A stretch of 63,966 nucleotides of DNA, filler included, from Craspedostauros australis (lineage: Eukaryota): assembly GCA_030167865.1 (NCBI GenBank). It is 6 parts of 6 records of this genome, joined end to end, with 100 filler letters (N's around TTAATTAATTAA, not from the genome) between each part and the next. Parts side by side here need not be neighbours in the genome. Positions count along the whole stretch, not along the records: positions 32,142 to 54,970 come from JALAGF010003468.1; 5 more parts are not named here. The stretch is one strand, 5' to 3'. A program made the position numbers and the translations under genes. The notes under the pieces are model-generated. The model was given only the letters and a program-made list of their open reading frames with translations. It had not been told where the DNA came from and searched no databases. Below, piece after piece: positions 2,491 through 63,966 of the stretch (position 1 is the stretch's first letter; each line of letters begins with the position of its first letter).

Positions 2491-3946
2491 TCAAGGACAG
2501 CAAGATGTACCGAGCTCCTCATTGCACATTCCATCCGGAATGAATTCAGCATCTGCCATGGTGAATCCATCACACGTGCACGCCTTTTCGCCAACGCAAG
2601 CTTCTGCTCCGACAACTGCGCTGACGCCCTTGCATGCGAGATCACCGATACAGGAATTGCCGGTAACTATGGAACCGATCGAGTCGCATGCTTCTGCCCC
2701 AATGCAGGAGTTTTCTCCGACAAAGACAATTTCGCCATCTTTCGCCGGAGATGCGTTGGCGCATGCTCGCGCACCGATGCACGCGGATTCACCTGTGAAG
2801 GTGAACTTGGAATCGATGCAGCTTTGGTATCCGAGGCACGATGCTTGTCCGATGGTGGAGAGGCTCAACGATGAGCAGGCATCCTCGCCGAAGCAGGAAG
2901 ATTCGCTGACGGTGGCATTCTCCGACAAGCCCAGGCATGCACGTTTGCCATGGCATGCGAATTCAGCGACGATGACTCCGGGACCATTGAGGGATTGGCA
3001 GGATTGCTCACCGTGGCAAGAGTTGATGCTCACGAAGACATCGTTGCTTCCTGCACATGCTTGTGTGCCGAAGCAAGAGTGATTCAAGACCAAGGCTTCA
3101 GAGACCCCGGAGCAGGATTGATCGCCTGTGCAGGCATCGTTGAGGATGAAAGATCCCGTCTGCAGGTCGCTGCAGGCTCCTGTTCCCGTGCAGCTGAAGT
3201 TGCCGATGAAAGAATCGGACACGCTGAGGCAGGATTGGGTGTCGGAACAGCTGCCATTGACCACAGTCATGAACATGGATGTCATGCATGCCTGTGTGCC
3301 TTGGCAACTCTCCTCACCGACGGAGGACTGCACCATGTCTTGACAGGCTTGGACGCCGTTGCATCCAGAGCGGGCGGCGGCGCTGCCCTGCACGTTCTGG
3401 CATGCTGCAGCCCCGGTGCAGCTCAAGTCTTCGAAGCTCGCGGAGACGACATCGCTGCATGCGCCTTGTCCGCGGCAGGTGCGGTTGCCGATGGCGACCA
3501 ATGTGGCATCGTCGCAGGATTGCGGGCCGATACATGAACCGTCACCCACAAAGGCTTCGATGCGGTTGCAGCCGGCGTCAATGCAGGAGTTGGATCCGAT
3601 GATCCCACGCGCATCTTTGCAAGCGCCGCCGGAAGACCCAGGCCCAGAGATGCAGGACAGTGGCCCAATGAGCGTTTGGTTGATGCCGATACAAGCGTCT
3701 GGCCCATTGCAGGATCCAGGACTCACGAAGGATGGGTTCTTCGATGAACATCGCGAGGTCTTCGTCTGGCGTCGGTTCTTCCTGAAGCGACCGTGCGCTT
3801 GATTGTGGCCGAGTGTGGGCGATCAGTCTCTTGATGGATGGATGATCCGCAACTGCCTGTGTCAGCTGATGCGGTTATCCGCTGGCCAGTGGTGCTGTCA
3901 GGGACAGGGCAGCGGCAACCTGCAAAAGGTGAGATGAGAGTTTCAT
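2491..3946 (-). pseudogene. disrupted allele of the secreted Cys-rich repeat protein
   Basis: Compared with 9106-10938: CAA>TAA nonsense codon at 3875-3877 and a net 377-bp frameshifting deletion at 3736/3739. Confidence 0.85.
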
Positions 3947-4708
3947 GGTTGCTTGTTGTCTTATCGTCGTGCTCCTACTTGATACAAGATTGTATAGAAA
4001 TGATTGTGTGGACACGACAGTCCAAGCAGATGGATTCAACTTGGTGCACTTTGTTACTGACGACGACGAGCGGCATCGATGGTGGAATAGTGAGGTACAT
4101 CTCTGCCTGCTCGTATGGTATGGTGCATGTGCTGCAATCCAGGGAAAGCATCACGTTCCTCCACACCGCATCGCAGGGCATCGCGGCACCTTGAACGCAG
4201 TCGCTCAAAATCCCACGAACCAACGACGATCAGCTCTGAAATGTGAGCCTGTCACACCCTCATCATGGCCATCATCCGATAGTGACAAAGCGCGTGCCCG
4301 CCTTGCCAAATTCATCGGTTCTTGTGGGGCCAAATTCGTGCACTCACGCTTTCCATGTCTTCGTGTCTTTGTCGCGAAATTTGTGATGGTGCCAATTTTC
4401 TCGACCAACGGAAAAATGTGACAGGAATTGTTGCTGAATTTTGAGTCATGTATATCGAGTGACACAATGATGATGATCGACTACATGGATCAAGTTTGGC
4501 AAGTCAACTTGATGTCTCCAACCATAGAACCACATCCACCCATCAAGGAAAGGAGAGACAGCAACACAGAGATCATGCCACTCCACTCCACGCTGCTCAT
4601 GCTTGTAGCCGCACAGATACACACGTTGGACTCTTGCACAAAAGATCACTGGAGGCTGCGGAATGATCGATGAGGAGATCCGGTAACGATCAATGAGAGC
4701 GTGGTCTG

Positions 4709-6515: not shown

Positions 6516-6615
6516 NNNNNNNNNNNNNNNNNNNNNNNNNNNNNNNNNNNNNNNNNNNNTTAATTAATTAANNNNNNNNNNNNNNNNNNNNNNNNNNNNN
6601 NNNNNNNNNNNNNNN
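6516..6615. other. artificial contig linker
   Basis: 44N-TTAATTAATTAA-44N, which has stops in all six frames. Confidence 0.98.
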
Positions 6616-7255
6616 AGTTGTTGGTTGCCAATTGCAGGAGGTATTCGAATCCCAGGCACGTCCCCCACACAGGCAGCGACGCATGAGGGGACATGGTTGA
6701 TGCTTCTGTGTCGACGGACGACCCGTACGATGATGATGATACTGCATCCGTGCCTCGCAGGTGCTCGCTGGGCGATGCTGAACTTCCATGGGCAACGCCG
6801 TTGCCGTCATTGGCATCAGACACGATCATCTTCCACAAGATCTTCGCGGATTCCGGCACCGCGCTGGCACCACCAGGAAAGAGGACGCCGTCCACAATGT
6901 CGTAAAGATCCGCAATCATCTCGGGTGTCGCGTCGTAGGGAATGGCGATGCTGCGCGCACCACCCATCTCCAACCATTTGGGATACGAAGAAGCGATCTG
7001 TGTCACATTCCGACCGATGTACGGCTGCGTGAGAATGCCGATGATGGGTGTGTCCAATGGCGAGTTCATCTGCAGCATGCCATCGCCTGCTTCCAGATCT
7101 GACCAGTGCGCAGGCAATGCAGACAGCACCACCTCCTCTTGCTTTGCATGATGTGTTGCCTGGCCGAGTGCTGGTCCCCACAAGGATGCCATCAACAGCA
7201 GGGAGGCTGCAGCTGTGGCTGTCGCGGGCAACGAGCATCGGCTCTTCATCATCAT
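6616..7255 (-). CDS. GGH: gamma-glutamyl hydrolase, 5' part (redundant copy)
   Basis: Same sequence as 1-640 at offset 6615. Confidence 0.85.
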
Positions 7256-9105: not shown

Positions 9106-10938
9106 TCAAGGACAGCAAGATGTACCGAGCTCCTCATTGCACATTCCATCCGGAATGAATTCAGCATCTGCCATGGTGAATCCATCACACGTGCACGCCT
9201 TTTCGCCAACGCAAGCTTCTGCTCCGACAACTGCGCTGACGCCCTTGCATGCGAGATCACCGATACAGGAATTGCCGGTAACTATGGAACCGATCGAGTC
9301 GCATGCTTCTGCCCCAATGCAGGAGTTTTCTCCGACAAAGACAATTTCGCCATCTTTCGCCGGAGATGCGTTGGCGCATGCTCGCGCACCGATGCACGCG
9401 GATTCACCTGTGAAGGTGAACTTGGAATCGATGCAGCTTTGGTATCCGAGGCACGATGCTTGTCCGATGGTGGAGAGGCTCAACGATGAGCAGGCATCCT
9501 CGCCGAAGCAGGAAGATTCGCTGACGGTGGCATTCTCCGACAAGCCCAGGCATGCACGTTTGCCATGGCATGCGAATTCAGCGACGATGACTCCGGGACC
9601 ATTGAGGGATTGGCAGGATTGCTCACCGTGGCAAGAGTTGATGCTCACGAAGACATCGTTGCTTCCTGCACATGCTTGTGTGCCGAAGCAAGAGTGATTC
9701 AAGACCAAGGCTTCAGAGACCCCGGAGCAGGATTGATCGCCTGTGCAGGCATCGTTGAGGATGAAAGATCCCGTCTGCAGGTCGCTGCAGGCTCCTGTTC
9801 CCGTGCAGCTGAAGTTGCCGATGAAAGAATCGGACACGCTGAGGCAGGATTGGGTGTCGGAACAGCTGCCATTGACCACAGTCATGAACATGGATGTCAT
9901 GCATGCCTGTGTGCCTTGGCAACTCTCCTCACCGACGGAGGACTGCACCATGTCTTGACAGGCTTGGACGCCGTTGCATCCAGAGCGGGCGGCGGCGCTG
10001 CCCTGCACGTTCTGGCATGCTGCAGCCCCGGTGCAGCTCAAGTCTTCGAAGCTCGCGGAGACGACATCGCTGCATGCGCCTTGTCCGCGGCAGGTGCGGT
10101 TGCCGATGGCGACCAAGGTGGCATCGTCGCAGGATTGCGGGCCAATACACGAACCGTCACCCACCAAGGCTTCGATGCGGTTGCAGCCGGCGTCAATGCA
10201 GGAGTTGGATCCGATGATCCCACGTGCATCCTTGCAAGCGCCGCCGGAAGACCCAGGCTCAGAGATGCAGGACAGTGGCCCAATGAGCGTTTGGTTGATG
10301 CCGATACAAGCGCCTGGTCCATTGCAGGATCCAGGACTCACGAAGGATGGGCTCGTGTCTTCGCACGCTGCTTCGTATGTACCGTCGCCATTGATTCCAC
10401 CGATGCAAGAGTGATCGCAGGAAATGGCCTGGGACAGTTCTGGGAACATGGGGGGCTCGATACGACCCATGCCACGATCGACCTCGTCAACATCTCCGTC
10501 GTCCTCCTTCATCGACTTGCCGGACTTTCCCGAGTCCCCGCTCTTGGACTGCTTGGGGGCCTTCGTCATGTCGTCGAAGGATGACTTCGGACTCTTGGAG
10601 CCCGCGATGGCCTTCGGAAGCTTGGTGCCCTCCTGCCCTGGATCGACCATTTCAGGTGACTTGGACGACTTCGTCCTCCGGTTGGAAACCGTGGAGACGT
10701 CATTGTTGAGGAAGAAAGGATGGCAGTTTCCTTCGATGAACATCGCGAGGTCTTCGTCTGGCGTCGGTTCTTCCTGAAGCGATCGTGCGCTTGATTGTGG
10801 CCGAGTGTGGGCGATCAGTCTCTTGATGGATGGATGATCCGCAACTGCCTGTGGCAGTTGCTGCGGTTGTCCGCTGGCCAGTGGTGCTGTCAGGGACAGG
10901 GCAGCGGCAACCTGCAAAAGGTGCGATGAGAGTTTCAT
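9106..10938 (-). CDS. secreted Cys-rich tandem-repeat protein (610 aa) with RXL site and KXXK-rich linker
   Basis: ATG at 10938 opens a signal peptide MKLSSHLLQVAAALSLTAPLASG; RSL at 10777-10785; KSSK/KSPK/KAPK/KQSK/KSGK/KSMK motifs; about 20 repeats of (S/A)CxGxx(A/S)C at 16-21 aa spacing. Confidence 0.85.
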   Translation of the reverse strand: MKLSSHLLQVAAALSLTAPLASGQPQQLPQAVADHPSIKRLIAHTRPQSSARSLQEEPTPDEDLAMFIEGNCHPFFLNNDVSTVSNRRTKSSKSPEMVDPGQEGTKLPKAIAGSKSPKSSFDDMTKAPKQSKSGDSGKSGKSMKEDDGDVDEVDRGMGRIEPPMFPELSQAISCDHSCIGGINGDGTYEAACEDTSPSFVSPGSCNGPGACIGINQTLIGPLSCISEPGSSGGACKDARGIIGSNSCIDAGCNRIEALVGDGSCIGPQSCDDATLVAIGNRTCRGQGACSDVVSASFEDLSCTGAAACQNVQGSAAARSGCNGVQACQDMVQSSVGEESCQGTQACMTSMFMTVVNGSCSDTQSCLSVSDSFIGNFSCTGTGACSDLQTGSFILNDACTGDQSCSGVSEALVLNHSCFGTQACAGSNDVFVSINSCHGEQSCQSLNGPGVIVAEFACHGKRACLGLSENATVSESSCFGEDACSSLSLSTIGQASCLGYQSCIDSKFTFTGESACIGARACANASPAKDGEIVFVGENSCIGAEACDSIGSIVTGNSCIGDLACKGVSAVVGAEACVGEKACTCDGFTMADAEFIPDGMCNEELGTSCCP

Positions 10939-11700
10939 GGTTGCTTGTTGTCTTATTGTCGTGCTCCTACTTGATACAAGATTGTATAGAAATGATTGTG
11001 AGGACACGAAAGTCCAAGCGGATGGATTCAACTTGGTGCGCTTTGTTGTTGACGACGACGAGCGGCATCGGTGGTGGAATAGTGAGGTACATCTCTGCCT
11101 GCTCGTATGGTATGGTGCATGTGCTGCAATCCAGGGAAAGCATCACGTTCCTCCACACCGCATCGCAGGGCATCGCGGCACCTTGAACGCAGTCGCTCAA
11201 AATCCCACGAACCAACGACGATCAGCTCTGAAATGTGAGCCTGTCACACCCTCATCATGGCCATCATCCGATAGTGACAAAGCGCGTGCCCGCCTTGCCA
11301 AATTCATCGGTTCTTGTGGGGCCAAATTCGTGCACTCACGCTTTCCATGTCTTCGTGTCTTTGTCGCGAAATTTGTGATGGTGCCAATTTTCTCGACCAA
11401 CGGAAAAATGTGACAGGAATTGTTGCTGAATTTTGAGTCATGTATATCGAGTGACACAATGATGATGATCGACTACATGGATCAAGTTTGGCAAGTCAAC
11501 TTGATGTCTCCAACCATAGAACCACATCCACCCATCAAGGAAAGGAGAGACAGCAACACAGAGATCATGCCACTCCACTCCACGCTGCTCATGCTTGTAG
11601 CCGCACAGATACACACGTTGGACTCTTGCACAAAAGATCACTGGAGGCTGCGGAATGATCGATGAGGAGATCCGGTAACGATCAATGAGAGCGTGGTCTG

Positions 11701-13507: not shown

Positions 13508-13607
13508 NNNNNNNNNNNNNNNNNNNNNNNNNNNNNNNNNNNNNNNNNNNNTTAATTAATTAANNNNNNNNNNNNNNNNNNNNNNNNNNNNNNNNNNNNN
13601 NNNNNNN
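13508..13607. other. artificial contig linker
   Basis: 44N-TTAATTAATTAA-44N. Confidence 0.98.
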
Positions 13608-18198: not shown

Positions 18199-18555
18199 TG
18201 TTAAAATAGCGCGCTGCGGAATCGAACCACGGAGCCAGTCCACGCCTTGCATGAACACAAGAAATTAACGCTTATAACCCATGTCGCGACACCCTCCCTA
18301 ATTCTTGGATTCATGCCCTTGAGCCCCCTTATCATGAGGACCCCCCACACTCTATTTTTATACTGCCGCTGTAGGCAGTCGGCAAGTTTCGGGTGTTTCT
18401 GTGTGTTTTTGTAGCAGGGGTGGGTACCAGCCGACGGAATCGAACCTTAGGCCACGCTACCATGTTAAAATAGCGCGCTGCGGAATCGAACCACGGAGCC
18501 AGTCCACGCCTTGCATGAACACAAGAAATTAACGCTTATAACCCATGTCGCGACA
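18199..18555 (-). mobile_element. TRIM (miniature non-autonomous LTR retrotransposon), 357 bp
   Basis: Identical 93-bp TG...CA direct repeats at 18199-18291 and 18463-18555; flanking duplication TGCTGT at 18193-18198 and 18556-18561; minus-strand PBS TGGTAGCG at 18462-18455; PPT AGGGAGGG at 18299-18292; no ORF. Confidence 0.92.
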
Positions 18556-32041: not shown

Positions 32042-32141
32042 NNNNNNNNNNNNNNNNNNNNNNNNNNNNNNNNNNNNNNNNNNNNTTAATTAATTAANNN
32101 NNNNNNNNNNNNNNNNNNNNNNNNNNNNNNNNNNNNNNNNN
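32042..32141. other. artificial contig linker
   Basis: 44N-TTAATTAATTAA-44N. Confidence 0.98.
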
Positions 32142-32209
32142 CCCCCCCCACGCTAGCGTAAGCTAGCGGAAAGAATCGACTCTGTCGTAACAGAGAGGAC
32201 GGGTAACCG

Positions 32210-35200
32210 TCAACCTCCGACATAAAACGGCCTAACCCGACCCATGATGAGGTCGGTATGTCGATGGAACAAGACAATCGACGTCTGTTTGGTGCACACG
32301 TCCGACGCATTCAGATCCGAAGCCACGTCCGCGATGAGTATGAGATCACGCTCCACCCAGTCGCAGACTGCAAACGTGCGAATGTCGATGTGCCTTGAGT
32401 TCTTCGTGGGCTGGCTGGCATTCGCCATCATCCGAGCTCCCCTGTTATCCTCGTAAAGAAGCGTGGCGTGCTGTTGGGGCACGCCAATTTCGTCGAGGAT
32501 TGAGCGGAGCCAGAGTGCCATCCTGCCAGCATCGCTGGCCGCAACAAACTCGGCCTCAGAGCTGCTGAGAGCAATGGTAGGCTGGATCCGAGTCTTCCAA
32601 GCAATGGCAGCGCCGCCAAAGAGATATACGATGCCAGTGGTCGACCGCCGGTGGCGCGTGTCGGAGCCCCAATCCGCGTCAACGTACCCGTACAAGGACG
32701 ACGCCTGTATGGTGTCTTGGTCAGCCACCTGGTGCGACTTGTCAGCAGAAGGGGACATTCGTCGCGGATCAGGAACCTGAGGTAGCTGCAGAACCGGCTG
32801 TGCACGCCAGTAGGTGATGCCATGTGTGCGAGTAGCAGCCACATACCGAAAGAGATATTTCACAGCCTCGTAGTGGATTCTGGCAGGGTTGATGGAGAAC
32901 TGACTGAGCTTGACAACCGGAAAGGAGATGTCAGGTCTGCATGACACCATCGCCCAGATGAGTTCACCGATAGCCTGCCGATAGCTGAAAAATTCAGACT
33001 GAAGTGCAGCACGCTCGCCATCGTCATCAGGACCCACACCTTGGTCAAGCTTGCGGATATACCCACTGTCAGACCGCATGGGAAGGCGTTGCGATGACCT
33101 CAGGTCACTCCAATCGTGGCGTGCCAGCACTTTGTTGATATACGTAGTGCAATGGACAGTGATGTGATGGCGCCCCTGCGTAAGGTCCAGGCCATTGTAG
33201 TGAGAGAAAATGCCATGACGTGTGATAGGTTGACGCAGCCGTTGATCGAGCATGTCGCAAAAGACTTGGAACGAATGTTCCATTGCCGTCGCAACAGCAA
33301 AGTCGTCCACTTGCCGTAGGACGTAGAGCTTGTGCCCATCAATGGACCCAGTGTATAGGCACGGAGCATGAGTGGTGGCAGCAAACCCCATCTCCTTGAG
33401 CATCCCATTAACGTGGAGACTCCACTGTCGAGGTGCTTCCGGGTGGCCCTGCAAGTTCTTGAGAACAGGCACCACTGCATTGCGGCCAAGGTGAACCCCA
33501 TGTTTGTGTTGCCACCAGCTGCGAAAGGGAGCATCCGCACGCATGTAGTACCGCTGAGCACTGGCGGGTGCCTCTGCAAAAGCATTCGCAACATCCGCAC
33601 CAAAGACAAGGAGCCCTTGAATAGCAGCAATTGCCACCAGGAGCCTGAATTCGGTGAGATCAGGTGTCGCCGCATAAGTATGGCCAAACACTCGGACGCT
33701 GCCGCCGCGGGTGGATCCGTCGCAAACTGCTCGAGCCTTCTTGCGATTGTTCTCGTGCGTTTTGACCACGTAGACCCAGACCCAATTGAAGATGGCAGCA
33801 TCGCGCGGCGCGTCAACAGGAGTCCCAAACATGCCTTGATGATGATACTGATCCAACTGCTTGAACTCAGCCTGTTGCCATTCCTCCCAGTCATCACGTT
33901 GAAGGAGCATTCGGCGGCTCAGCTTGGGAGCTGCATGCACCTGATTCGCCGCAGGCTGCACATCATCAAGAATCCCGCGAATATGCCGGAGCTGATCAAA
34001 GTACAGCTGAGGGACCCCTCGCTGCGACAGCGCATTGCGCACCTCATCAAAGGCGAAGATGGCGTCGCACTGAGTCAAGCCACCCTTACGAGCATTGGCC
34101 ACAGCGAGAGCGAGGTCTTCCATGGTGTGCACCGGGCTGTCATGGAACTGCAGCAGATGCGCATTCCGCATGCGAGTGCGCCAGCGAGGAATGCGCGCAG
34201 CTTTGGACCCTGGACGGCACCGCACCAGCTGCAGACGGCCGCGAGCGTCATCGTAGGAAAACTCCAAGCCAGCCGTGTCATCGTCGCCGGTGATGTCGAT
34301 GGTCTGAGCAAAAGCAAGGTCGAACGGATCACCTGCCATGACAACAATGTCCGAACTGGGCGATGCCGGAATAGAACAGGCAGCAGCCGCAGCATGGATA
34401 TCATCTGTGTCGCGAGTGATGGACTCGATGCACTCAAGAGGTAGACTGGTGCGACCTGGTTCATGTTTGTCCGGTACCTTGACACCATCAGACTCGACTT
34501 CCATCTCGAAGCCAAGCTCGAAGAGCAATTGAGGTCCAGGTGGGCGCTCAGTGGAAGAGAAGTGAGCCTCGTCAAAGACGATGTTGCCCGCAGTCTTGAT
34601 CCGTCCTGAGTCCAGGTCGTAGTACTCATGAAGCGATGGAGTAGCTGTGTGCCCCACAAATATGCCATCATAAGTGTGCACATCCAGCTTGGCTGCGGGA
34701 TACCCAGGTTTGCGAACCGTCACACGTGATCCAAACACCCGCAAGTGACTGACGTCGGGCTTCACACCATGTTGGAGCTCGTAGGGTGTAGCGTCGATGG
34801 ATTTGTGCCACAAGCGGTTCTTGATATACACGGCATGTACAAGAGCTCTGGCCCAGAAGCGCGGATGAAGTCCAGAGGAGTACAGCAGCGCTCGAGTCAT
34901 GACACCAAAGGTGCGGTTGAGACGTTCCACCTTGCCGTTCATCCACGAGCAGCCAGCACCGGTGGGTTCGAGGTTGTACCCAGCAGACTGTACAATCTCT
35001 TGGAACGCACTGGACCGAGCGAGTTCTCCACCGGTGTCGACTCGCACCGCACGGTGACCATCGCGCCGCCCAAAGTCGCGCAAGAGCTTCGAAAAGATGT
35101 CCACAGGCGGCGACCGATCCTTGGTGGGGAATACCCACGTGTACCGAGTGTATGCATCTGTCACCAACAGGTAGGATGTGAATCCCTCCAACGACTGGAC

Positions 35201-36160
35201 CACACGATGATGCTTGGCGCTGCCTCGAGACGAAGACCGACCATATCGGGGACCAGAAGACCGCATGAACCCAAAATCCGCATGGAAACGGGCACCAGCG
35301 ACGGCCACCACATCAGGATCGTTGGGCCCATGCGCTGCCTTTTGCCGCTGCGCCTGACTGCAAGCAGTGCAATGACGCATGGGATGAGCACCTTGGGACA
35401 GCCGCGAAGGTAACCCAGTGCAGTGCTTGGGCAACTGAGCAAGCTGCTGCATGCCAGAATGACCCAGCCGCATATGCCAAAGTTCAGCACGCAGTGCAGG
35501 TGAAGATCCTTGCAGCGCAAACGCCGTGGGAGCACGGACACCACCATCATCGAAGAAGTAGAGGCCATTGTGCTGTCGCATGGTAGCGGACACAGGTGCA
35601 CCAGGTCCACAAAAGGTGATGGTGGCATCGTGCAGACCACAGCTGAGAACAAAGCGCTCGAAGTCGTTGTCAGTCTGTCGGACGACCGCCTGAGGCGAAA
35701 TGAGCGTAGTGGACAGCCCAGGGCAGTACATGGCCTCAACGTGGATGACCCCACCATCATCATTGGGGACGTAGATGACGCCACCCCCAGGGCATGTCAT
35801 GCACGGCGACCCAGCATTGGCAGCGGCGAGCAGCACAGGCTGGGCATACTCCCGGTACCGGCTGATGATGGACCGCTCAGGCGTGGCGCTGACGTTGGCG
35901 CCAACATCGCACTGTCCAGGACCGCCACCAGGATCCCACGCACGCTCAGGACCACTCGAATGCCGGGCAGAGTGGACGCGACACGCATGTGCAATGGCAA
36001 CGCTGGCCATCTTGATTGGCGGAACGCCAGCGTAAGCAGGTATGGTAAGCGCGGACACCCCACCAGAGTGATGGCCTGCATGTGCCCCGCTGCGACGATG
36101 CATGAGAGAACGCCGTTCATCAGGAGATGCATCTACTCCTGACCGGCGGACCAAAAATCC
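32210..36160 (-). CDS. pol: Pol polyprotein (protease, integrase, RT, RNase H), in the -1 frame relative to gag
   Basis: PR CDVGAN; IN HMRLGH...CTAC, HADFG, VDTGGE, NGKVERLNR; RT KARAVCDG, ADVANAF, LRQVDDF; RH YVDADWG, SSEAEF, YEDNRGA, RHIDIR. Confidence 0.95.
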   Translation of the reverse strand, partial: GFLVRRSGVDASPDERRSLMHRRSGAHAGHHSGGVSALTIPAYAGVPPIKMASVAIAHACRVHSARHSSGPERAWDPGGGPGQCDVGANVSATPERSIISRYREYAQPVLLAAANAGSPCMTCPGGGVIYVPNDDGGVIHVEAMYCPGLSTTLISPQAVVRQTDNDFERFVLSCGLHDATITFCGPGAPVSATMRQHNGLYFFDDGGVRAPTAFALQGSSPALRAELWHMRLGHSGMQQLAQLPKHCTGLPSRLSQGAHPMRHCTACSQAQRQKAAHGPNDPDVVAVAGARFHADFGFMRSSGPRYGRSSSRGSAKHHRVVQSLEGFTSYLLVTDAYTRYTWVFPTKDRSPPVDIFSKLLRDFGRRDGHRAVRVDTGGELARSSAFQEIVQSAGYNLEPTGAGCSWMNGKVERLNRTFGVMTRALLYSSGLHPRFWARALVHAVYIKNRLWHKSIDATPYELQHGVKPDVSHLRVFGSRVTVRKPGYPAAKLDVHTYDGIFVGHTATPSLHEYYDLDSGRIKTAGNIVFDEAHFSSTERPPGPQLLFELGFEMEVESDGVKVPDKHEPGRTSLPLECIESITRDTDDIHAAAAACSIPASPSSDIVVMAGDPFDLAFAQTIDITGDDDTAGLEFSYDDARGRLQLVRCRPGSKAARIPRWRTRMRNAHLLQFHDSPVHTMEDLALAVANARKGGLTQCDAIFAFDEVRNALSQRGVPQLYFDQLRHIRGILDDVQPAANQVHAAPKLSRRMLLQRDDWEEWQQAEFKQLDQYHHQGMFGTPVDAPRDAAIFNWVWVYVVKTHENNRKKARAVCDGSTRGGSVRVFGHTYAATPDLTEFRLLVAIAAIQGLLVFGADVANAFAEAPASAQRYYMRADAPFRSWWQHKHGVHLGRNAVVPVLKNLQGHPEAPRQWSLHVNGMLKEMGFAATTHAPCLYTGSIDGHKLYVLRQVDDFAVATAMEHSFQVFCDMLDQRLRQPITRHGIFSHYNGLDLTQGRHHITVHCTTYINKVLARHDWSDLRSSQRLPMRSDSGYIRKLDQGVGPDDDGERAALQSEFFSYRQAIGELIWAMVSCRPDISFPVVKLSQFSINPARIHYEAVKYLFRYVAATRTHGITYWRAQPVLQLPQVPDPRRMSPSADKSHQVADQDTIQASSLYGYVDADWGSDTRHRRSTTGIVYLFGGAAIAWKTRIQPTIALSSSEAEFVAASDAGRMALWLRSILDEIGVPQQHATLLYEDNRGARMMANASQPTKNSRHIDIRTFAVCDWVERDLILIADVASDLNASDVCTKQTSIVLFHRHTDLIMGRVRPFYVGG
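36097..36160 (-). promoter_or_regulatory. putative -1 programmed ribosomal frameshift signal (slippery site plus pseudoknot)
   Basis: G_GAT_TTT in the gag frame, 6-nt spacer, stem GCCG-GTCAGGAG / CTCCTGAT-GAA-CGGC, loop GATGCAT complementary to downstream ATGCATC; same layout at 62786-62849. Confidence 0.8.
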
Positions 36161-37839
36161 AGGTCGAGCGAATGAACGACGTCATCGGACACCAGAAGAT
36201 CCTCAACTCGGGCGTCCTCAACAGTGCCGAAGCGCTGGATGGCACGAGCAGTAGACTTGAACTTGTCAGGGCCAAAGTGTTCGCGGTAGCTCTCGCGAAT
36301 GCGCCGGGCATCGTCAGGATGGTCGGCCACATACTGGATGAGGTGAGCAGTGCGCCCAAACATCTTGCACGTGGCGGCCCGGTGGCCCATAGAGCAGCAC
36401 GCCTCGCAGTATGCACCCGGATCAGGCTTGTAGAACGCATGGCGTGGGCGCTCAGGGCGTTGGCCACGTCCACCATCGCGCGGAGCCCGTTGGGACCGGG
36501 TTTGAGCACGATGAGCAAGTGGTTGCACGCCAGATCCAGGAGGATCCGGAATCTCCTGAGCAAGCTGCTCAATGTGGAGATTGAACGGCAAGGACTTGGG
36601 CGAGGTCACGGAGCGAATGGCCGTGCGGTAGTGATCAAGGGAGTACCCATGAGACCGGAGCTCCTCAAGGAAGAGACGGCTGACCTCCATGTCGGTCACC
36701 GTACGGTGAAAAACGAGTCCTTCCACATGCTGGAACCCAAGGAGGCGAGTGGCAAACTCAGACACAGACCCCTCGAAGGTGGGATGCTTGTGGACCTGAG
36801 ATTGCACCTGGTCGAACGCCCCAGCAAGGATCTTGTGCAGGAACATGTACGCCGACAGCTGGTGGGGAAGAACACCAAAACTGCCAGCATACTTGAGCTG
36901 CAAGCCGGCATGGCTGGAATTGATGACGCCATCAGCTTGAAGCTTGACAACGAGCTTGGAGTTCATCTCGAAGACGCGGCGACCCACCACATTGCCAGGG
37001 ATGACCGACAGATGGGGTCGGAAGAGATCCAAGGGGCAGACGTGGAGATCGACGCAGAGAGCCGCTGCCTGGAACTGAGCATACCACTGGAAGACTCGAT
37101 GCGGATCGTCATCCACAAGCTTCAGCGCCCACTTATCCCAAGTCTGTTGGGCGCCGTACTCAAGGCGATCAAGAGAAGGGCCAATGTGGTAGGTGTCATG
37201 GCGGCGGAGCGACGGACTGGCATTGGCAAGGCCGTAGGGAACTCCAGATGCCGTGATGTAGTCGAAGTCCTCGCCCCCAGCAGCACACCACTCAGGAGCA
37301 TCACCAGCGGCAGGAGACGTCGAAGACTCAGGCACGCGAGGAGCATCCGAGGGCAGCGCGTCGACACCATCAGTAGGCGTAGCAGGTGTCATCTCACCCT
37401 CTAGCACCACTGGGAGCGCGTCACCGCCGTCACGGGCACGGTCATCGCCACTGGCACGGTCGTCGTCAGTAGGAGTAGGCGGAGTGCTTGTCGCAGGGGC
37501 GCGGCGGCCCTGGGATGGAGCGAACGCCTCAGGAATTACACGCTCCTTGCGAAGGAAGGACCGAAACACCCGTGGGGTGATCTCGCCGGCCCAACCATCC
37601 GAATCGGCATGCAGCACGTACCACGCGCGAAGTTTCCACATGCCACGGATGCGAACCCCATCATCGTCGCCCCACGCAAGCATGCGCTGATGGAAGAGGT
37701 CATCGGGGGAGTCGAGAAGATCGCACAGCTCGCCGTCAGTGGCAAGACCAAGGGCCTCGAGCATGGAGTCGAACCAACGCCAACCGAGCCGCTTCGAGAT
37801 GGTGTGAGCATCAGAAAGCACGTCGTCGTCGGAGGTCAT
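36133..37839 (-). CDS. gag: Gag of the Copia element (568 aa)
   Basis: Zinc knuckle CEACCSMGHRAATC (CX2CX4HX4C); lies directly upstream of pol; homologous to the ORF at 62822-63966. Confidence 0.9.
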   Translation of the reverse strand: MTSDDDVLSDAHTISKRLGWRWFDSMLEALGLATDGELCDLLDSPDDLFHQRMLAWGDDDGVRIRGMWKLRAWYVLHADSDGWAGEITPRVFRSFLRKERVIPEAFAPSQGRRAPATSTPPTPTDDDRASGDDRARDGGDALPVVLEGEMTPATPTDGVDALPSDAPRVPESSTSPAAGDAPEWCAAGGEDFDYITASGVPYGLANASPSLRRHDTYHIGPSLDRLEYGAQQTWDKWALKLVDDDPHRVFQWYAQFQAAALCVDLHVCPLDLFRPHLSVIPGNVVGRRVFEMNSKLVVKLQADGVINSSHAGLQLKYAGSFGVLPHQLSAYMFLHKILAGAFDQVQSQVHKHPTFEGSVSEFATRLLGFQHVEGLVFHRTVTDMEVSRLFLEELRSHGYSLDHYRTAIRSVTSPKSLPFNLHIEQLAQEIPDPPGSGVQPLAHRAQTRSQRAPRDGGRGQRPERPRHAFYKPDPGAYCEACCSMGHRAATCKMFGRTAHLIQYVADHPDDARRIRESYREHFGPDKFKSTARAIQRFGTVEDARVEDLLVSDDVVHSLDLDFWSAGQE

Positions 37840-37978
37840 GTTGGAGCGAAGCGAAGGGAAGAGGAGAAGGGGCAGGGAAGAGATACCACTGAGTGTAAGG
37901 GAATGGAACGTCCTTGAACACAAAGCGCGAGGAGAGGAGAGCGCGAAAGGCTATAACCTGTCAGTATCTGAGGGGAAC

Positions 37979-38117: not shown

Positions 38118-39812
38118 ATGATTGGCGCCATCTGCATCGCGTGCATGGTGGTGGCAACGAACTCACTGTCATCACCATCCCCATCATCCCTGTCATCCCC
38201 ACTCCAGCGCAGAAGCATTAGCATCAGTAGAAACAGCAGCAATAGGAGTGGGAGTGGAAATGAGAGTCGCCAACCAATACGGAAGGTCGCAGTCATCGAT
38301 GGTGGCATCGCCGGTCTCTCCTTGGCGCATGCCTTCGAAAACAACAACGGCAACGATGCACACATCATTGATGTGAAATGCTTCGATGCGAGACCAGAAT
38401 TGGACGTCATCGCAGGTGCGGGTGTGCAGCTCAACGGTGGCATGGCGGCATGGCAACATGGCAGTGCTGAAGCAGATCTATCCGTCCCTGTCCCCGTCAC
38501 TGTAGCGTGCAGCATACAGCATACAGCGTGCGGTGACCGATGGCGCGCTGCCGTTGACGACCGTGCGATCCAAGACCACCAGCTAGATCTCATCCAACGA
38601 GGAGGTCCAGCTGCTGCACTTCAATCTCAGACAGATGATCATGGATGCGAAGTGACGCCACGACGAAAGCGCTGATCCAGGAGGAAGGCGAGGTCATGGC
38701 GTACCATCCTCCATCATTCGAGGAGAGTTGCAGGAGGTGCTGCTGGAGAAGCTGAAGACGACACCCGTGCATCTTGGCAAGCAGGTGATGAATGTGGAAT
38801 ATGAAAAGACGGAGGCGTGAGATGCCATCCATCTTTCGTTTGAAGATGGAACGAGAGGAGGGCCGTACTGGTACGACATGGTGGTGGGCTGCGATGGTGC
38901 CAACAGCGTCGTGAAGCAGTACATCAACGGCGATGCGCGGTCGTCATCAGACAATCAACGCAATTCGGTGGTTGTGTACTCTGGCATCCGCATCCGGTAC
39001 GCCATCCAGGATGTCGCCAAAGAGGACAGCGATAGTAGCAGCGGCAGCACCAGCGACGACGGAACGAACACAATAGCACAAGATTCCGTCCTGCAGCAAC
39101 ACTTTGGCAACTGCGCCTACTGCCTCGCTGGAAACTGCGGTAATGGTATCAAGCGCGGCACCACCCGATGCTGTCCCATCATCTTCCGCAATGCCTTGCC
39201 CTTCTCCAAGCCCGCCATCAGCAAGGATGATGAGAATGTCACTTGGAAGGCATGATCCGAGGCCGAACGCATCCAGCAACAGATGCGACAGCAGATCGAT
39301 GATGCCAAGATCCCAACACACACCACAAGGCCCATCATCTATCGACTCATGGGTAATGCCGATCGCTTCTTCACGTTGGGGATCTACCTCCACAATCCGT
39401 TTGCGCGATGGACCAAGGTGATGGTGGCCACCAGCGGAAATCGCAACCGCAATGGAGGCACCGGCGCACGCCATGCCACAGTTTCTTGGACAGGACACCA
39501 ATCAATCCATCCAAGACGCCTACTGTTAGGCCAACGCCATCCAGCAGTACACCATGCAGTACAATGAACAAGCCAATGGTGGGAACAGCCTCCAAGACAT
39601 CCTGCAGACAGAATACAAGGACAAGCGATGGTCCACCACCATGGACATCATGGGCATCACGACCACCACAGCCAAGGCTGATTGGTCTGCTGGGATACCT
39701 GGAGGCCTCATCGGGACCGTTGACCAAGTTCCGGGACGTGTCCTTCTTCATCGTGGACAAGACGGGTGTTGCGAAGAAGATCTTTCTGGATGCTGCCGTT
39801 CGGAGGATATGA
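38118..39812 (+). pseudogene. FAD-dependent monooxygenase (aromatic hydroxylase / zeaxanthin epoxidase-like) pseudogene
   Basis: KVAVIDGGIAGLSLA (damaged GxGxxG), GAGVQL, YDMVVGCDGANSVVK and HAMPQFLGQDTNQSIQDAY in different frames, with stops and frameshifts. Confidence 0.75.
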
Positions 39813-54057: not shown

Positions 54058-54970
54058 TCATATCCTCAGAACAGCAGCACCCAGAACGGTCTTCTTCGCA
54101 AAGCCCGTCTTGTCCATGATGAAGAAGAACACATCCCGGAACTTGGCCAACGGCCACAACGAGGACTCCAGGTATCCCAGCAGACCAACCTCGGCCGTGA
54201 TATCCATGATGGTCGCGATGGTGGGCCATCACTTGTCCTTGTAATCTATCTGCAGGATGTCTTCGAGGCTGATCCCGCCATTGGCTTGTCCATTGTACTG
54301 CATGGTGTACCGCTGAATGGCGTTGCCCAGACAATAAGCGTCTTCGATGGCCTGATTAGTGTCCTGTCCAAGAAACTGTGGTATGGCGTGCGCTGGTGCC
54401 TCCATTGCGGTTGCGGTTGCGGTTGCCGTTGGTGGCCACCATCGCCTTGGCCCGTCGCGCAAAGGGATTTTGGAAGTCGATCCCCAACTCGAAGAGACGA
54501 TCGGCATTGTCGATGAGTCGATCGATGATGGGCCTGATGGTGTCCATGGGGATCTTGGCATCTTCGATCTGCTGTCACATCTGTTGCTGGACGTGCTCGG
54601 TCTCGGATCATGCCTATCAAGGGACGCTCTCGTCATTCGTGCTGGCGGTGGGCTTGGAGAAGGGGGAAGGTGTTGCGGAAGATGATGAAGCAGCCTCTCA
54701 TGGTATCACGCTTGATGCCGCTACCATGGTTGATGTTGTCGTCGTTGCCGGTGAGGCAGTAGGCACAGTTGCCAAAGTATTGCTGCAGGATGGGATCTTG
54801 TTCCATTGTGTTCGTTTGGTCGCCGCTACTTCTGCTGCTACTACTCCCGCTGCTACTGTCGCTGTCCTCTTTGGCGACATCCTGAATGGCGTGCCGGATG
54901 CGGATGCCAGAGTACACAGCCACCGAATTGCGTTTGTTGCCTGCTGAAGACCGCACATTGCCATCACCAC
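54058..54970 (-). pseudogene. FAD monooxygenase pseudogene, 3' part (inverted copy)
   Basis: VYSGIRIRHAI and HAIPQFLGQDTNQAIEDAYCL, with frameshifts. Confidence 0.7.
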
Positions 54971-55070
54971 NNNNNNNNNNNNNNNNNNNNNNNNNNNNNN
55001 NNNNNNNNNNNNNNTTAATTAATTAANNNNNNNNNNNNNNNNNNNNNNNNNNNNNNNNNNNNNNNNNNNN
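54971..55070. other. artificial contig linker
   Basis: 44N-TTAATTAATTAA-44N. Confidence 0.98.
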
Positions 55071-62337: not shown

Positions 62338-62437
62338 NNNNNNNNNNNNNNNNNNNNNNNNNNNNNNNNNNNNNNNNNNNNTTAATTAATTAANNNNNNN
62401 NNNNNNNNNNNNNNNNNNNNNNNNNNNNNNNNNNNNN
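62338..62437. other. artificial contig linker
   Basis: 44N-TTAATTAATTAA-44N. Confidence 0.98.
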
Positions 62438-62849
62438 AAAGATGCGCGCCGCCACCACATGATATCCGCATGTACCCTTCTCCCGGGCACTCCATAGCAG
62501 GCGAAGACGAGTCCGCTGCCTCAAGGCTGGAAGGAGTAGTAAACGCGGTATAGTCACTGAGGAGACGCGCATGTGGAGTCGCGCAAACGTTGGCACCTAG
62601 ATCACACTGACCGTGAATTCGTTGGCGCCATTCGCTGTCGCGAGACCCTGCAAGTGCATTTGCACGGAGCGGGACCGTCGTTGACGTCATGAAACGATCC
62701 GGCTCTGTGAACTGCACTTGGGTTGAGGCAGTTTGTAGCGGAGATGCAACGCTGGTGTGCGTGCCTGTTTGCATCCCGCATGGGCGAGCAACGGGTAGTA
62801 GCCGTTCACCGGAGAGCTGCTCTACTTCCGGCCGGCAAGAACAAAATCC
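62438..62849 (-). CDS. pol: Pol N-terminus (protease), -1 frame, truncated by contig edge
   Basis: Frame is open from GGA TTT TGT... through GQCDLGANVCAT. Confidence 0.85.
62786..62849 (-). promoter_or_regulatory. putative -1 frameshift signal, second copy
   Basis: G_GAT_TTT, 6-nt spacer, GCCG-GCCGGA / TCCGGT-GAA-CGGC stem, loop GAGCA complementary to downstream TGCTC. Confidence 0.8.
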
Positions 62850-63966
62850 TGGAAAAGGATCTGCGCTGTACGCTCGTCGTCGCTGCTGTTGTCGCCGTCA
62901 TCGCTCAATGAGTCACGTCCATGATGGACAAGAGCGACAGCCCTGGCAACTGTGCTTGCACGCTCGCTGGAGTAGACCTCCTTGTACGTCTTGAGAACCT
63001 TCGCAGCAAGGTCAGGTTCGGACTCGCGGAGCTCAGCGAAACGCAGATCGCGTGCCCATGGAAGGCAGCTGCGCGCATGATGTCCCTTGCGGTGGCACGC
63101 GGAGCAGAATGCATCCTTGTCCGGTTGATAAAACTCGGACCGCTTGCGCTCGCCACGCTTGCCATCGCCACCAGACTTCCCAGACGAACGTGTTTGCACA
63201 CGGTGGCCAATATTGGACGTTGAGGCAGTGGGATCTCCTCTGATGGTACGGGCAAGAGCCGACACGTGTAGGTGAGGGGGCACGCGCTTGTTGCCTGGCA
63301 CCAGGGACAGAGACGTGATGTGGTGTTCCACAGGCATGTGGTGAGAGCGAAGACCTTCGAGGAATCGGCGGGATAGCTCCACATCAGTGATCGTGCGACG
63401 GTGAACGACGCTCTCGGTTTGTTGGAATTCCAACAACGCCGTGGCGAACTTGATGACGTCTTGCGAATCGCCATACTCAGGCGCTTGGCTCACGGTGTTG
63501 GCAACACGCATGTATGCGTCCGAGAGCACTTGATGAAGGAAAAGGAAGGATGACAGATGGTGTGGCGACATGCCGAAAGTCCCAGAATAGAATAGGGAGA
63601 TGGCAGGGTCGTCCAGATCGAGGATGTCCTTCTGTTGCAACTTCTTGTTCAGCCACTCGCCGGCACGGATGACACGTTCACGTGGAGCGTTGCGCGGAAT
63701 GATGGAGCACTGCGGACTGAACGCGGAAAGCGGACAGATGTGGATGTCCACACCAGCAGCCTCGGCTTGGAGTTGTGTGTACCACTTGAGTACTCCAGCG
63801 GGCGCGTCCCCAGCAAGCTTCAGCTCCCAGCGCTGCCAGTATCCAATGGCGGCATACGAGGGCTCTGTGACCATGGGAACCTCCTTGAAGTGGAAATGAG
63901 GGAGGACTGCAGGGTTGTTGCGGGCCATGGCGTAGGTAAGGCCAGAGCCGGTGATGAAGTCGACGG
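62822..63966 (-). CDS. gag: Gag, 5'-truncated by the window end
   Basis: Zinc knuckle CSACHRKGHHARSC; frame is open upstream of ATG 63928 (VDFITGSGLTYA aligns with FDYITASGVPYG of element 1). Confidence 0.9.
   Translation of the reverse strand, partial: VDFITGSGLTYAMARNNPAVLPHFHFKEVPMVTEPSYAAIGYWQRWELKLAGDAPAGVLKWYTQLQAEAAGVDIHICPLSAFSPQCSIIPRNAPRERVIRAGEWLNKKLQQKDILDLDDPAISLFYSGTFGMSPHHLSSFLFLHQVLSDAYMRVANTVSQAPEYGDSQDVIKFATALLEFQQTESVVHRRTITDVELSRRFLEGLRSHHMPVEHHITSLSLVPGNKRVPPHLHVSALARTIRGDPTASTSNIGHRVQTRSSGKSGGDGKRGERKRSEFYQPDKDAFCSACHRKGHHARSCLPWARDLRFAELRESEPDLAAKVLKTYKEVYSSERASTVARAVALVHHGRDSLSDDGDNSSDDERTAQILFQDFVLAGRK

Follow-up and report, generated by a model that had tools for sequence, protein, structure and literature searches.

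Programmed -1 ribosomal frameshifting at the junction of gag and pol is classical in retroviruses and in many animal long terminal repeat (LTR) elements (Atkins et al. 2016, PMC5009743), and the survey of Gao et al. (2003), as summarised in the same review, placed pol at -1 in 28 of 51 animal elements, mostly from Drosophila. For Ty1/Copia elements the strategies on record are a single open reading frame (ORF), splicing, protein turnover (in the single-ORF element Ty5) and the +1 shift of Ty1, and frameshifting of a direction left unstated in these sources is given for Drosophila 1731 (PMC5009743, PMC5443660, PMC5580714). The present analysis concerns the gag/pol junction of a diatom Ty1/Copia-type element, here called element 1, on the minus strand of a 63,966-nt stretch of DNA from Craspedostauros australis (GenBank assembly GCA_030167865.1; the whole stretch is referred to as the window), where the reading frames, a slippery heptamer and a bulged stem probably make up a programmed -1 frameshift cassette. 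The -1 elements surveyed by Gao et al. were reportedly for the most part of the Ty3/gypsy type.

Among RNA viruses, shift sites of the G_GA type work in dianthoviruses, umbraviruses and others, and pea enation mosaic virus RNA 2 carries G_GAU_UUU_UGG_UAG, in which the nearby stop is functionally important (PMC5009743). According to the same review, the spacer of -1 signals is usually 5–9 nt long and the pseudoknot of infectious bronchitis virus requires 11 bp or more in its stem 1. Element 1 reads G_GAU_UUU_UGG at the corresponding place, and the same G_GAU_UUU is found in Tombusviridae and luteovirus signals (red clover necrotic mosaic virus, pea enation mosaic virus RNA 2 and barley yellow dwarf virus), so that the likening of this site to a dianthovirus -1 site in an earlier note on the same DNA agrees with what the review states of G_GA-type sites (PMC5009743). 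The parts of the cassette, with coordinates that count along the window as do all those below, were as follows.

36154..36160, minus strand: slippery heptamer G_GAU_UUU, in the gag frame
36148..36153, minus strand: 6-nt spacer
36112..36147, minus strand: stem 1, with 5' arm 36147-36136 and 3' arm 36126-36119 plus 36115-36112
36118-36116, minus strand: GAA bulge on the 3' side of stem 1
36135-36127, minus strand: 9-nt loop containing the gag stop
36097..36133, minus strand: candidate pseudoknot stem 2, 36133-36127 with 36103-36097, 7 Watson-Crick pairs
36111-36104, minus strand: connecting loop of stem 2, 8 nt

The gag end of element 1 reads ...CTG GAT TTT TGG TCC GCC GGT CAG GAG TAG on the minus strand, and the gag and pol ORFs, both intact, overlap by 49 nt according to their coordinates on that strand. 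Stem 1 comprises 12 pairs, 4 in its outer part and 8, including one G-U, in its inner part, and is the minimum-energy fold given by RNAfold for the 71 nt of 36160-36090, the hairpin having an energy of -16.4 kcal/mol. The gag stop and the -1 frame of pol, the heptamer with its 6-nt spacer and GAA-bulged stem (36160-36112), and the exact 7-bp complementarity between the loop that holds the stop and a stretch 8 nt past stem 1 were all present on this strand as the earlier note had read them. As in retroviruses and animal LTR elements, pol lies at -1 with a short overlap and with the heptamer near the gag end, and the presumed purpose is likewise an excess of Gag over Gag-Pol (PMC5009743).

The coding features of element 1 and the features that flank them were the following.

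37950..36133, minus strand: gag ORF, from the ORF scan
36133..37839, minus strand: gag coding sequence, from ATG 37839-37837 through 568 codons to TAG 36135-36133, from ORF and translation
36408-36367, minus strand: CX2CX4HX4C zinc knuckle in gag, by motif match
32210..36181, minus strand: pol ORF, in frame -1 with respect to gag, 1323 stop-free codons
35911-35894, minus strand: protease-like motif CDVGAN, about 90 residues into pol
35476-35360, minus strand: integrase HH..CC motif of pol
32305-32288, minus strand: terminal RNase H motif of pol
32142..32150, minus strand: purine run, T followed by G8, 60 nt past the pol stop, where the contig piece ends
37882..37888, minus strand: TGGTATC, primer-binding-site-like, 43 nt upstream of the gag ATG

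A Pfam search of element 1 pol returned gag_pre-integrs (residues 229-277), rve (335-403), SH3_retrovirus (471-541) and RVT_2 (reverse transcriptase, RT; 789-1026), the scores for rve (19 bits) and gag_pre-integrs (28.3 bits) being below the curated cut-offs, while no Pfam match was returned for gag. By this order of pol domains, which is that of Copia, element 1 is a Ty1/Copia-type LTR retrotransposon, the class to which it had first been assigned. The conserved CD.GAN of pol, kept in 8 of the 9 aligned pol proteins that extend to the motif region, is likely the protease site, and the run of T and G8 that follows pol is possibly a polypurine tract. Element class, domain order and the problem of the Gag:Pol ratio are shared with Ty1, Drosophila copia, plant Copia elements, Ty5 and 1731; unlike those elements, for which the sources cited above describe nothing of the kind, element 1 has a -1 heptamer with a conserved stem or knot. 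The CoDi elements of diatoms resemble element 1 in having ORF1 (gag) upstream of ORF2 (polyprotein) and differ from it in that the main text of their description gives no shift site or RNA structure (Maumus et al. 2009, PMC2806351).

Relatives of element 1 were sought first among proteins. No gag homologue was found by word search, and a protein cluster search with gag led only to unnamed or zf-CCHC clusters with no informative taxa. The nine closest pol homologues were 44–52% identical over at least 90% of the query and were pol-only proteins of 1231–1393 aa, one of them a marine-eukaryote transcript. A scan of metagenome contigs guided by the pol protein, from which 80 of 97 relatives were kept, yielded five loci that span the junction (L001, L002, L003, L009 and L011), with pol 39–48% identical to that of element 1; two others (L007 and L014) begin downstream of the junction and were uninformative on the cassette. 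Homology of the gags of L001, L002 and L003 to that of element 1 was evident by tblastn (26–29% identity, E about 1e-28).

Gag lay upstream of a pol in the -1 frame in all five junction-spanning relatives. With these five, element 1 and a second element of the window (element 2, described below), a -1 overlap that lacks a conserved start codon was noted at 7/7 junctions; in those metagenome relatives that have a gag stop, the overlap is 16 to 34 nt. A heptamer in the gag frame was likewise present in all seven cassettes, as G_GAU_UUU in six (L001, L002, L003, L009 and elements 1 and 2) and as the canonical A_AAU_UUU in L011, a change of two bases that keeps the site slippery, and the spacer was 6 nt in each of the seven. 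The gag stop comes one codon past the heptamer in L001, L002 and L011, as in pea enation mosaic virus RNA 2 (PMC5009743), and in or at the stem in element 1 and L003. The arrangement, the heptamer, the spacer and the bulged stem thus recur in 5/5 relatives and in element 2, which speaks against a mutation in a dead copy and is in keeping with the proposal of the earlier note that the -1 signal belongs to a lineage. Along the contig of L003 (L003:1-3717) the last part of pol is followed by non-coding sequence, and this in turn by gag and the beginning of pol, an order that suggests either tandem elements or an LTR element assembled as a circle.

Searches of other contig sets contributed no further cassettes. 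A loose DNA pattern applied to viral contigs gave at least 117 stretches in phage-type contigs, which were set aside as chance matches, and a protein scan of the viral contigs found no relative of pol. Contigs of prokaryote genomes gave 30 loci, all in bacterial records, that matched only the integrase core (23–41% identity).

Covariation in stem 1 was assessed on an alignment of exact cassette segments, the 3' arms of L009 and L011 having been misplaced when MAFFT was applied to 101-nt junction windows. Among six cassettes, 69/72 cells were paired, both sides had changed in 6 of the 12 pairs, and 0/500 shuffles equalled the alignment in any of the five measures used; when the 3' partner was displaced by 1–3 columns, pairing fell to 17–67%, and RNAalifold independently gave the same 12 pairs. 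When element 2 was included, 80/84 cells were paired and 7/12 pairs were compensatory, in an alignment that was fitted to the covariance model and is to that extent biased toward the structure. A comparison of gag/pol junctions of the kind that the earlier note had called for has brought out a covarying stem 1. The bulge is of 3 nt throughout, GAA or, in L002, ACA. As in the Tombusviridae and luteovirus signals, a stem-loop stands 6 nt downstream of the heptamer with an unpaired stretch on its 3' side; unlike here, where the bulge has 3 nt, the internal loop of those viruses has 6 nt and pairs about 4 kb downstream (PMC5009743). A long-distance contact through the 3-nt bulge was considered and dropped, the bulge being too short, although no search for a distant partner was made. 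The carrier also differs, being a reverse-transcribing retrotransposon and not a plus-strand RNA virus.

A covariance model built from six cassettes was run on both strands of the window and of loci L001 to L025 (163,549 bases). Besides the six training sequences, the model returned one further full-length match, at 62849-62801 on the minus strand (29.9 bits, E 2.7e-5), the next match having an E of 0.82. This match lies at the gag/pol junction of element 2, the features of which were as follows.

62786..62849, minus strand: element 2 cassette, found with the covariance model and outside its training set
62849-62843, minus strand: heptamer G_GAU_UUU, in the gag frame
62842-62837, minus strand: spacer, 6 nt
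62836-62825 with 62815-62808 plus 62804-62801, minus strand: stem 1, with GAA bulge 62807-62805
62824-62822, minus strand: gag stop TAG, in the loop at the same position as in element 1
62822-62816 with 62792-62786, minus strand: candidate stem 2, with an 8-nt connecting loop
62822..63964, minus strand: partial gag, which runs off the end of the window
62438..62897, minus strand: start of pol, in the -1 frame, with protease-like CDLGAN

Element 2 gag was 38% identical to element 1 gag (tblastn, E 1e-81), and element 2 therefore belongs to a different family from element 1. Its pol is cut after 460 nt by a linker at 62338-62437.

For each cassette, 1000 shuffles of the 45 nt that follow the stem served as control for pairing between the loop and the sequence downstream. 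Duplexes as stable as the observed one arose in 1.1% of shuffles for element 1 (0.011) and 0.4% for element 2 (0.004), and a helix of at least 7 pairs, G-U included, arose in 5.4% of shuffles for element 1. The corresponding fraction for L009 was 0.015, with two competing partners at other distances. Against a pseudoknot common to all, pairing was at chance level in L011, L003, L001 and L002 (shuffle fractions 0.45–0.93), the loop of L002 having only 4 nt. Elements 1 and 2 share the geometry of stem 2 (2 nt unpaired, 7 bp, 0 nt, 8 nt); in their gapless alignment 14/14 stem 2 cells were paired, and of the seven pairs four had changed on both sides, one had changed on one side and two were invariant. 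When all three helices of the two elements were taken together, slid controls paired at 29–55% and 7/500 shuffles matched the observed values. The match in stem 2 is not explained by protein coding, because the pol-frame peptides of elements 1 and 2 differ.

From these comparisons we lean toward a pseudoknot that forms and matters in element 1, provided that the frameshift is real; judged by the seven cassettes, the pseudoknot is not shared by the lineage as a whole. The H-type pseudoknot proposed in the earlier note was therefore retained for the two elements of this genome and not for four of the relatives, with L009 ambiguous. A less probable reading, though one to be taken seriously, is that the bulged stem-loop alone would drive the -1 shift while the 7-bp complementarity between loop and downstream sequence is unformed or irrelevant. 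It is favoured by the four of seven cassettes in which such pairing is not seen, by the stem-loop being the sole structural part conserved in all seven, and by the 5.4% of shuffles that equal the helix length of element 1. Simple stem-loops are enough for some -1 signals, for example that of HIV-1. Two elements as divergent in gag as elements 1 and 2 nevertheless keep a co-located 7-bp stem 2 in which every cell is paired and four pairs are doubly changed, and the low shuffle fractions of both point the same way, toward pseudoknot formation in these two.

The predicted knot resembles that of infectious bronchitis virus in its 12-pair stem 1, 2-nt first loop, 7-bp stem 2 and 6-nt spacer (PMC5009743). 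It differs from the latter in the 3-nt bulge within stem 1, in the heptamer (G_GAU_UUU as opposed to U_UUA_AAC) and in being seen in 2, perhaps 3, of 7 related cassettes. The minimal knot of infectious bronchitis virus works with an 8-nt connecting loop. The palindrome ATGCAT occurs in both stem 2 arms of element 1 (36128-36133 and 36098-36103, minus strand), each of which could self-pair between two RNA molecules.

If the cassette acts as a programmed -1 signal, most ribosomes would terminate at UAG 36135-36133, with a 568-aa Gag as the product. A minority would pause, Asp-tRNA occupying GAU and Phe-tRNA occupying UUU, at the moment when the bulged 12-bp stem that starts 6 nt downstream reaches the mRNA entrance; both tRNAs would then slip back one base in tandem, to GGA and UUU, and decoding would resume in the pol frame at TTG 36154-36152. 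These ribosomes would make a fusion of Gag and Pol, about 1876 aa long, with ...LDLDF/LVRRSG... at the join and with protease, integrase, RT and RNase H in it. For elements 1 and 2, the last 7 bases of the loop would in addition pair 8 nt downstream and thereby complete a pseudoknot of the H type that has a long stem 1. The slip, its efficiency and its role in the Gag:Pol ratio are what we infer from sequence comparison.

Several results weigh against this interpretation or narrow its reach. G_GAU_UUU is not a canonical X_XXY_YYZ heptamer, Asp-tRNA being left on GGA after the slip, and L009 has TAC for TAG and no gag-frame stop near the site. Hairpin energies were modest across the cassettes (-8.3 to -16.4 kcal/mol), and the fold of element 1 on its own was not significantly above chance: the 71-nt fold had z = -1.19, with 25/200 shuffles as stable, and a 161-nt context had z = -0.83 and a different minimum-energy fold in which 5 stem 1 pairs were left and the 3' arm of stem 1 paired with bases near 36180-36168. 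The claim that the cassette exceeds chance is made because of the comparison with relatives and not because of single-sequence folding. That comparison covers seven cassettes in all, of which L009 and L011 are alike, and metagenome loci that come without host assignment; moreover, sequence conservation in the 3' arm of stem 1 may partly stem from coding, because the bases of this arm are at the same time codons for a semi-conserved peptide in the pol frame, D/N-E-R. One relative, L004 (33–39% identity), in which an open frame takes up the 357 nt upstream of the protease region, had neither a cassette nor a match to the covariance model, so that not all relatives have the frameshift signal. In the 161-nt fold the 3' arm of stem 1, together with flanking bases, pairs with the stretch at 36168-36180 (minus strand), just 5' of the heptamer, and the modelled helix may be a competing or attenuating one.

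Expression of pol without any frameshift, whether through splicing of the mRNA or through initiation or reinitiation at an internal site, is improbable. Splicing does regulate Gag and Pol in Drosophila copia and plant Ty1/Copia elements (PMC5580714), and element 1 offers a candidate start in the form of an in-frame ATG at codon 27 of the pol ORF (36103-36101), within the 3' arm of stem 2. The earlier description of pol as having no ATG at its start must be qualified to that extent, and holds in the sense that this ATG is not conserved, Met being absent from the first 50 pol-frame codons of L001 and L002. Furthermore, in each relative the open pol frame reaches back exactly to the heptamer region, which would be superfluous if the ORF were initiated internally, and neither splicing nor an internal start explains the heptamer, the fixed spacer or the covarying stem.

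Still less credence is given to a conserved structure that serves packaging or dimerisation of the RNA and lies at the gag/pol boundary by coincidence. Retroelement RNAs carry packaging and dimerisation signals, and the palindrome in the loop of element 1 would allow a kissing dimer; neither element 2 nor any of the relatives compared has this palindrome, and the palindromic loop was dropped as a dimerisation site on that account. The 6-nt distance from the stem to an in-frame heptamer, fixed in 7/7 cassettes, is explicable only by a role in translation.

Very improbable, too, is polymerase slippage on the U run, by which RNA polymerase or reverse transcriptase would add or drop a base and so provide some templates with gag and pol in one frame. 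Retrotransposon cassettes with U6 do slip in vitro with reverse transcriptase, the stimulating stem being 5'-adjacent to the motif (PMC5737552). Element 1 has U5 and relatives have U4 only, shorter runs than such slippage needs, the stem stands 6 nt 3' of the heptamer, which is the ribosomal geometry, and the change from G_GAU to A_AAU in L011 fits re-pairing of tRNAs instead. A chance indel in a dead copy, arising in the T5 run or from assembly and entailing no recoding, is scarcely credible despite that run, the position of element 1 at a contig edge among small contigs and the want of a demonstrable LTR pair, since the same -1 layout and heptamer occur in five metagenome relatives and element 2, four of the seven elements have U4 and not U5, and the ORFs of element 1 are otherwise stop-free over 568 and 1323 codons.

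A different arrangement was noted among more distant relatives of pol (30–38% identity). In six of these loci (L005, L006, L008, L010, L015 and L023) and in the degenerate L017, gag and pol share a frame and are separated by one UGA, at the following positions.

L005:3417-3500: UGA junction
L006:3281-3364: UGA junction
L008:3437-3520: UGA junction
L023:3060-3143: UGA junction
L010:1503-1586: UGA junction
L015:3210-3293: UGA junction
L017 near 2508: UGA junction

The stop context was UGA_CGG in 5/6 aligned loci and UGA_UGG in L010, with TGA_CAA in L017, and RNAalifold predicted for the six loci an extended stem of 17 pairs, 5 of them compensatory, that begins one base past the UGA. These features suggest that a sister lineage uses programmed readthrough of the stop codon. 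In the pol of L006 (L006:3284-8155) a dUTPase domain (PF00692, E 5e-34) was found between integrase and RT, and several database relatives of 1424–1743 aa also have dUTPase. It is conceivable, and put forward here tentatively as something rather unlikely, that one diatom Copia clade switched its mode of recoding at a homologous gag/pol junction, with a -1 shift in one branch, its bulged stem developed into a pseudoknot in this genome, versus UGA-CGG readthrough in the dUTPase-carrying sister branch. Just past the site, the pol-frame peptide (RSG...) is similar in the UGA and the frameshift lineages, as are the surrounding bases, the resemblance being a short one.

The ends of element 1 and the make-up of the window may be described together. 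TGGTATC upstream of gag is a sequence that we take to resemble initiator-tRNA primer sites, the 5' LTR being expected immediately upstream of it, and ARAGORN, run for a primer match, found no tRNA gene in the whole window. No LTR pair was found for element 1 at three search settings or by blastn of its flanks, and the window contains no 3' LTR for it because the linker at 32042-32141 directly adjoins the G8 run. Five identical linkers (44 N, TTAATTAATTAA, 44 N) lie at 6516-6615, 13508-13607, 32042-32141, 54971-55070 and 62338-62437, and the window is therefore a chain of small contig pieces. Both Copia elements lie at ends of contig pieces, as expected of repeats that break assemblies. An inverted match of 72 nt (87.5% identity) was noted between 38929-39000, upstream of element 1, and 54891-54962, at the far end of the same contig piece. 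On the evidence of a neighbouring NPL4 gene, the named best relatives of which come from Cylindrotheca, Pseudo-nitzschia, Nitzschia, Amphora and Seminavis (57–65% identity), that is from pennates, the host is a diatom. The window's first two contig pieces are near-duplicates (97–100% identity for 1-300 versus 6616-6915 and 3739-4038 versus 10731-11030) with ORFs of equal size (308 and 565 aa), and are probably haplotigs or a duplicated contig. Elsewhere, an exact direct repeat of 93 nt was noted at 18199-18291 and 18463-18555, the copies being 264 nt apart.

A full-text search of one library of papers found no account of a -1 frameshift cassette in Copia elements, an earlier listing in survey tables being possible. 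Of the papers found there on diatom Copia elements, that of Maumus et al. (2009) alone deals with the gag/pol boundary, and nothing on recoding came up for GalEa or CoDi elements. The mechanism itself is textbook, and what appears to be new, as far as the literature searched goes, is its conserved use, with a site like that of plant viruses, in a diatom Copia lineage. Beside the single ORF, splicing, protein turnover or +1 shift on which Copia elements are usually said to rely, a conserved -1 cassette would be a fifth strategy. The seven cassettes also form a compact natural test set, in which one heptamer and a fixed spacer are combined with a stem that is or is not accompanied by a pseudoknot, and the apparent readthrough of a sister lineage at this junction is relevant to the question whether one type of recoding can take over the stimulators of another. 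If a switch of recoding mode did take place, both signals would be closer to those of plant and insect RNA viruses than to those of other Copia elements, and recoding modules would be interchangeable, or convergent, between protist retroelements and RNA viruses. For the genomes themselves, gene callers split these elements and report a "pol-only" protein that starts from an arbitrary Met, and modelling of the Gag-Pol fusion would improve both the annotation of diatom transposons and estimates of their activity.

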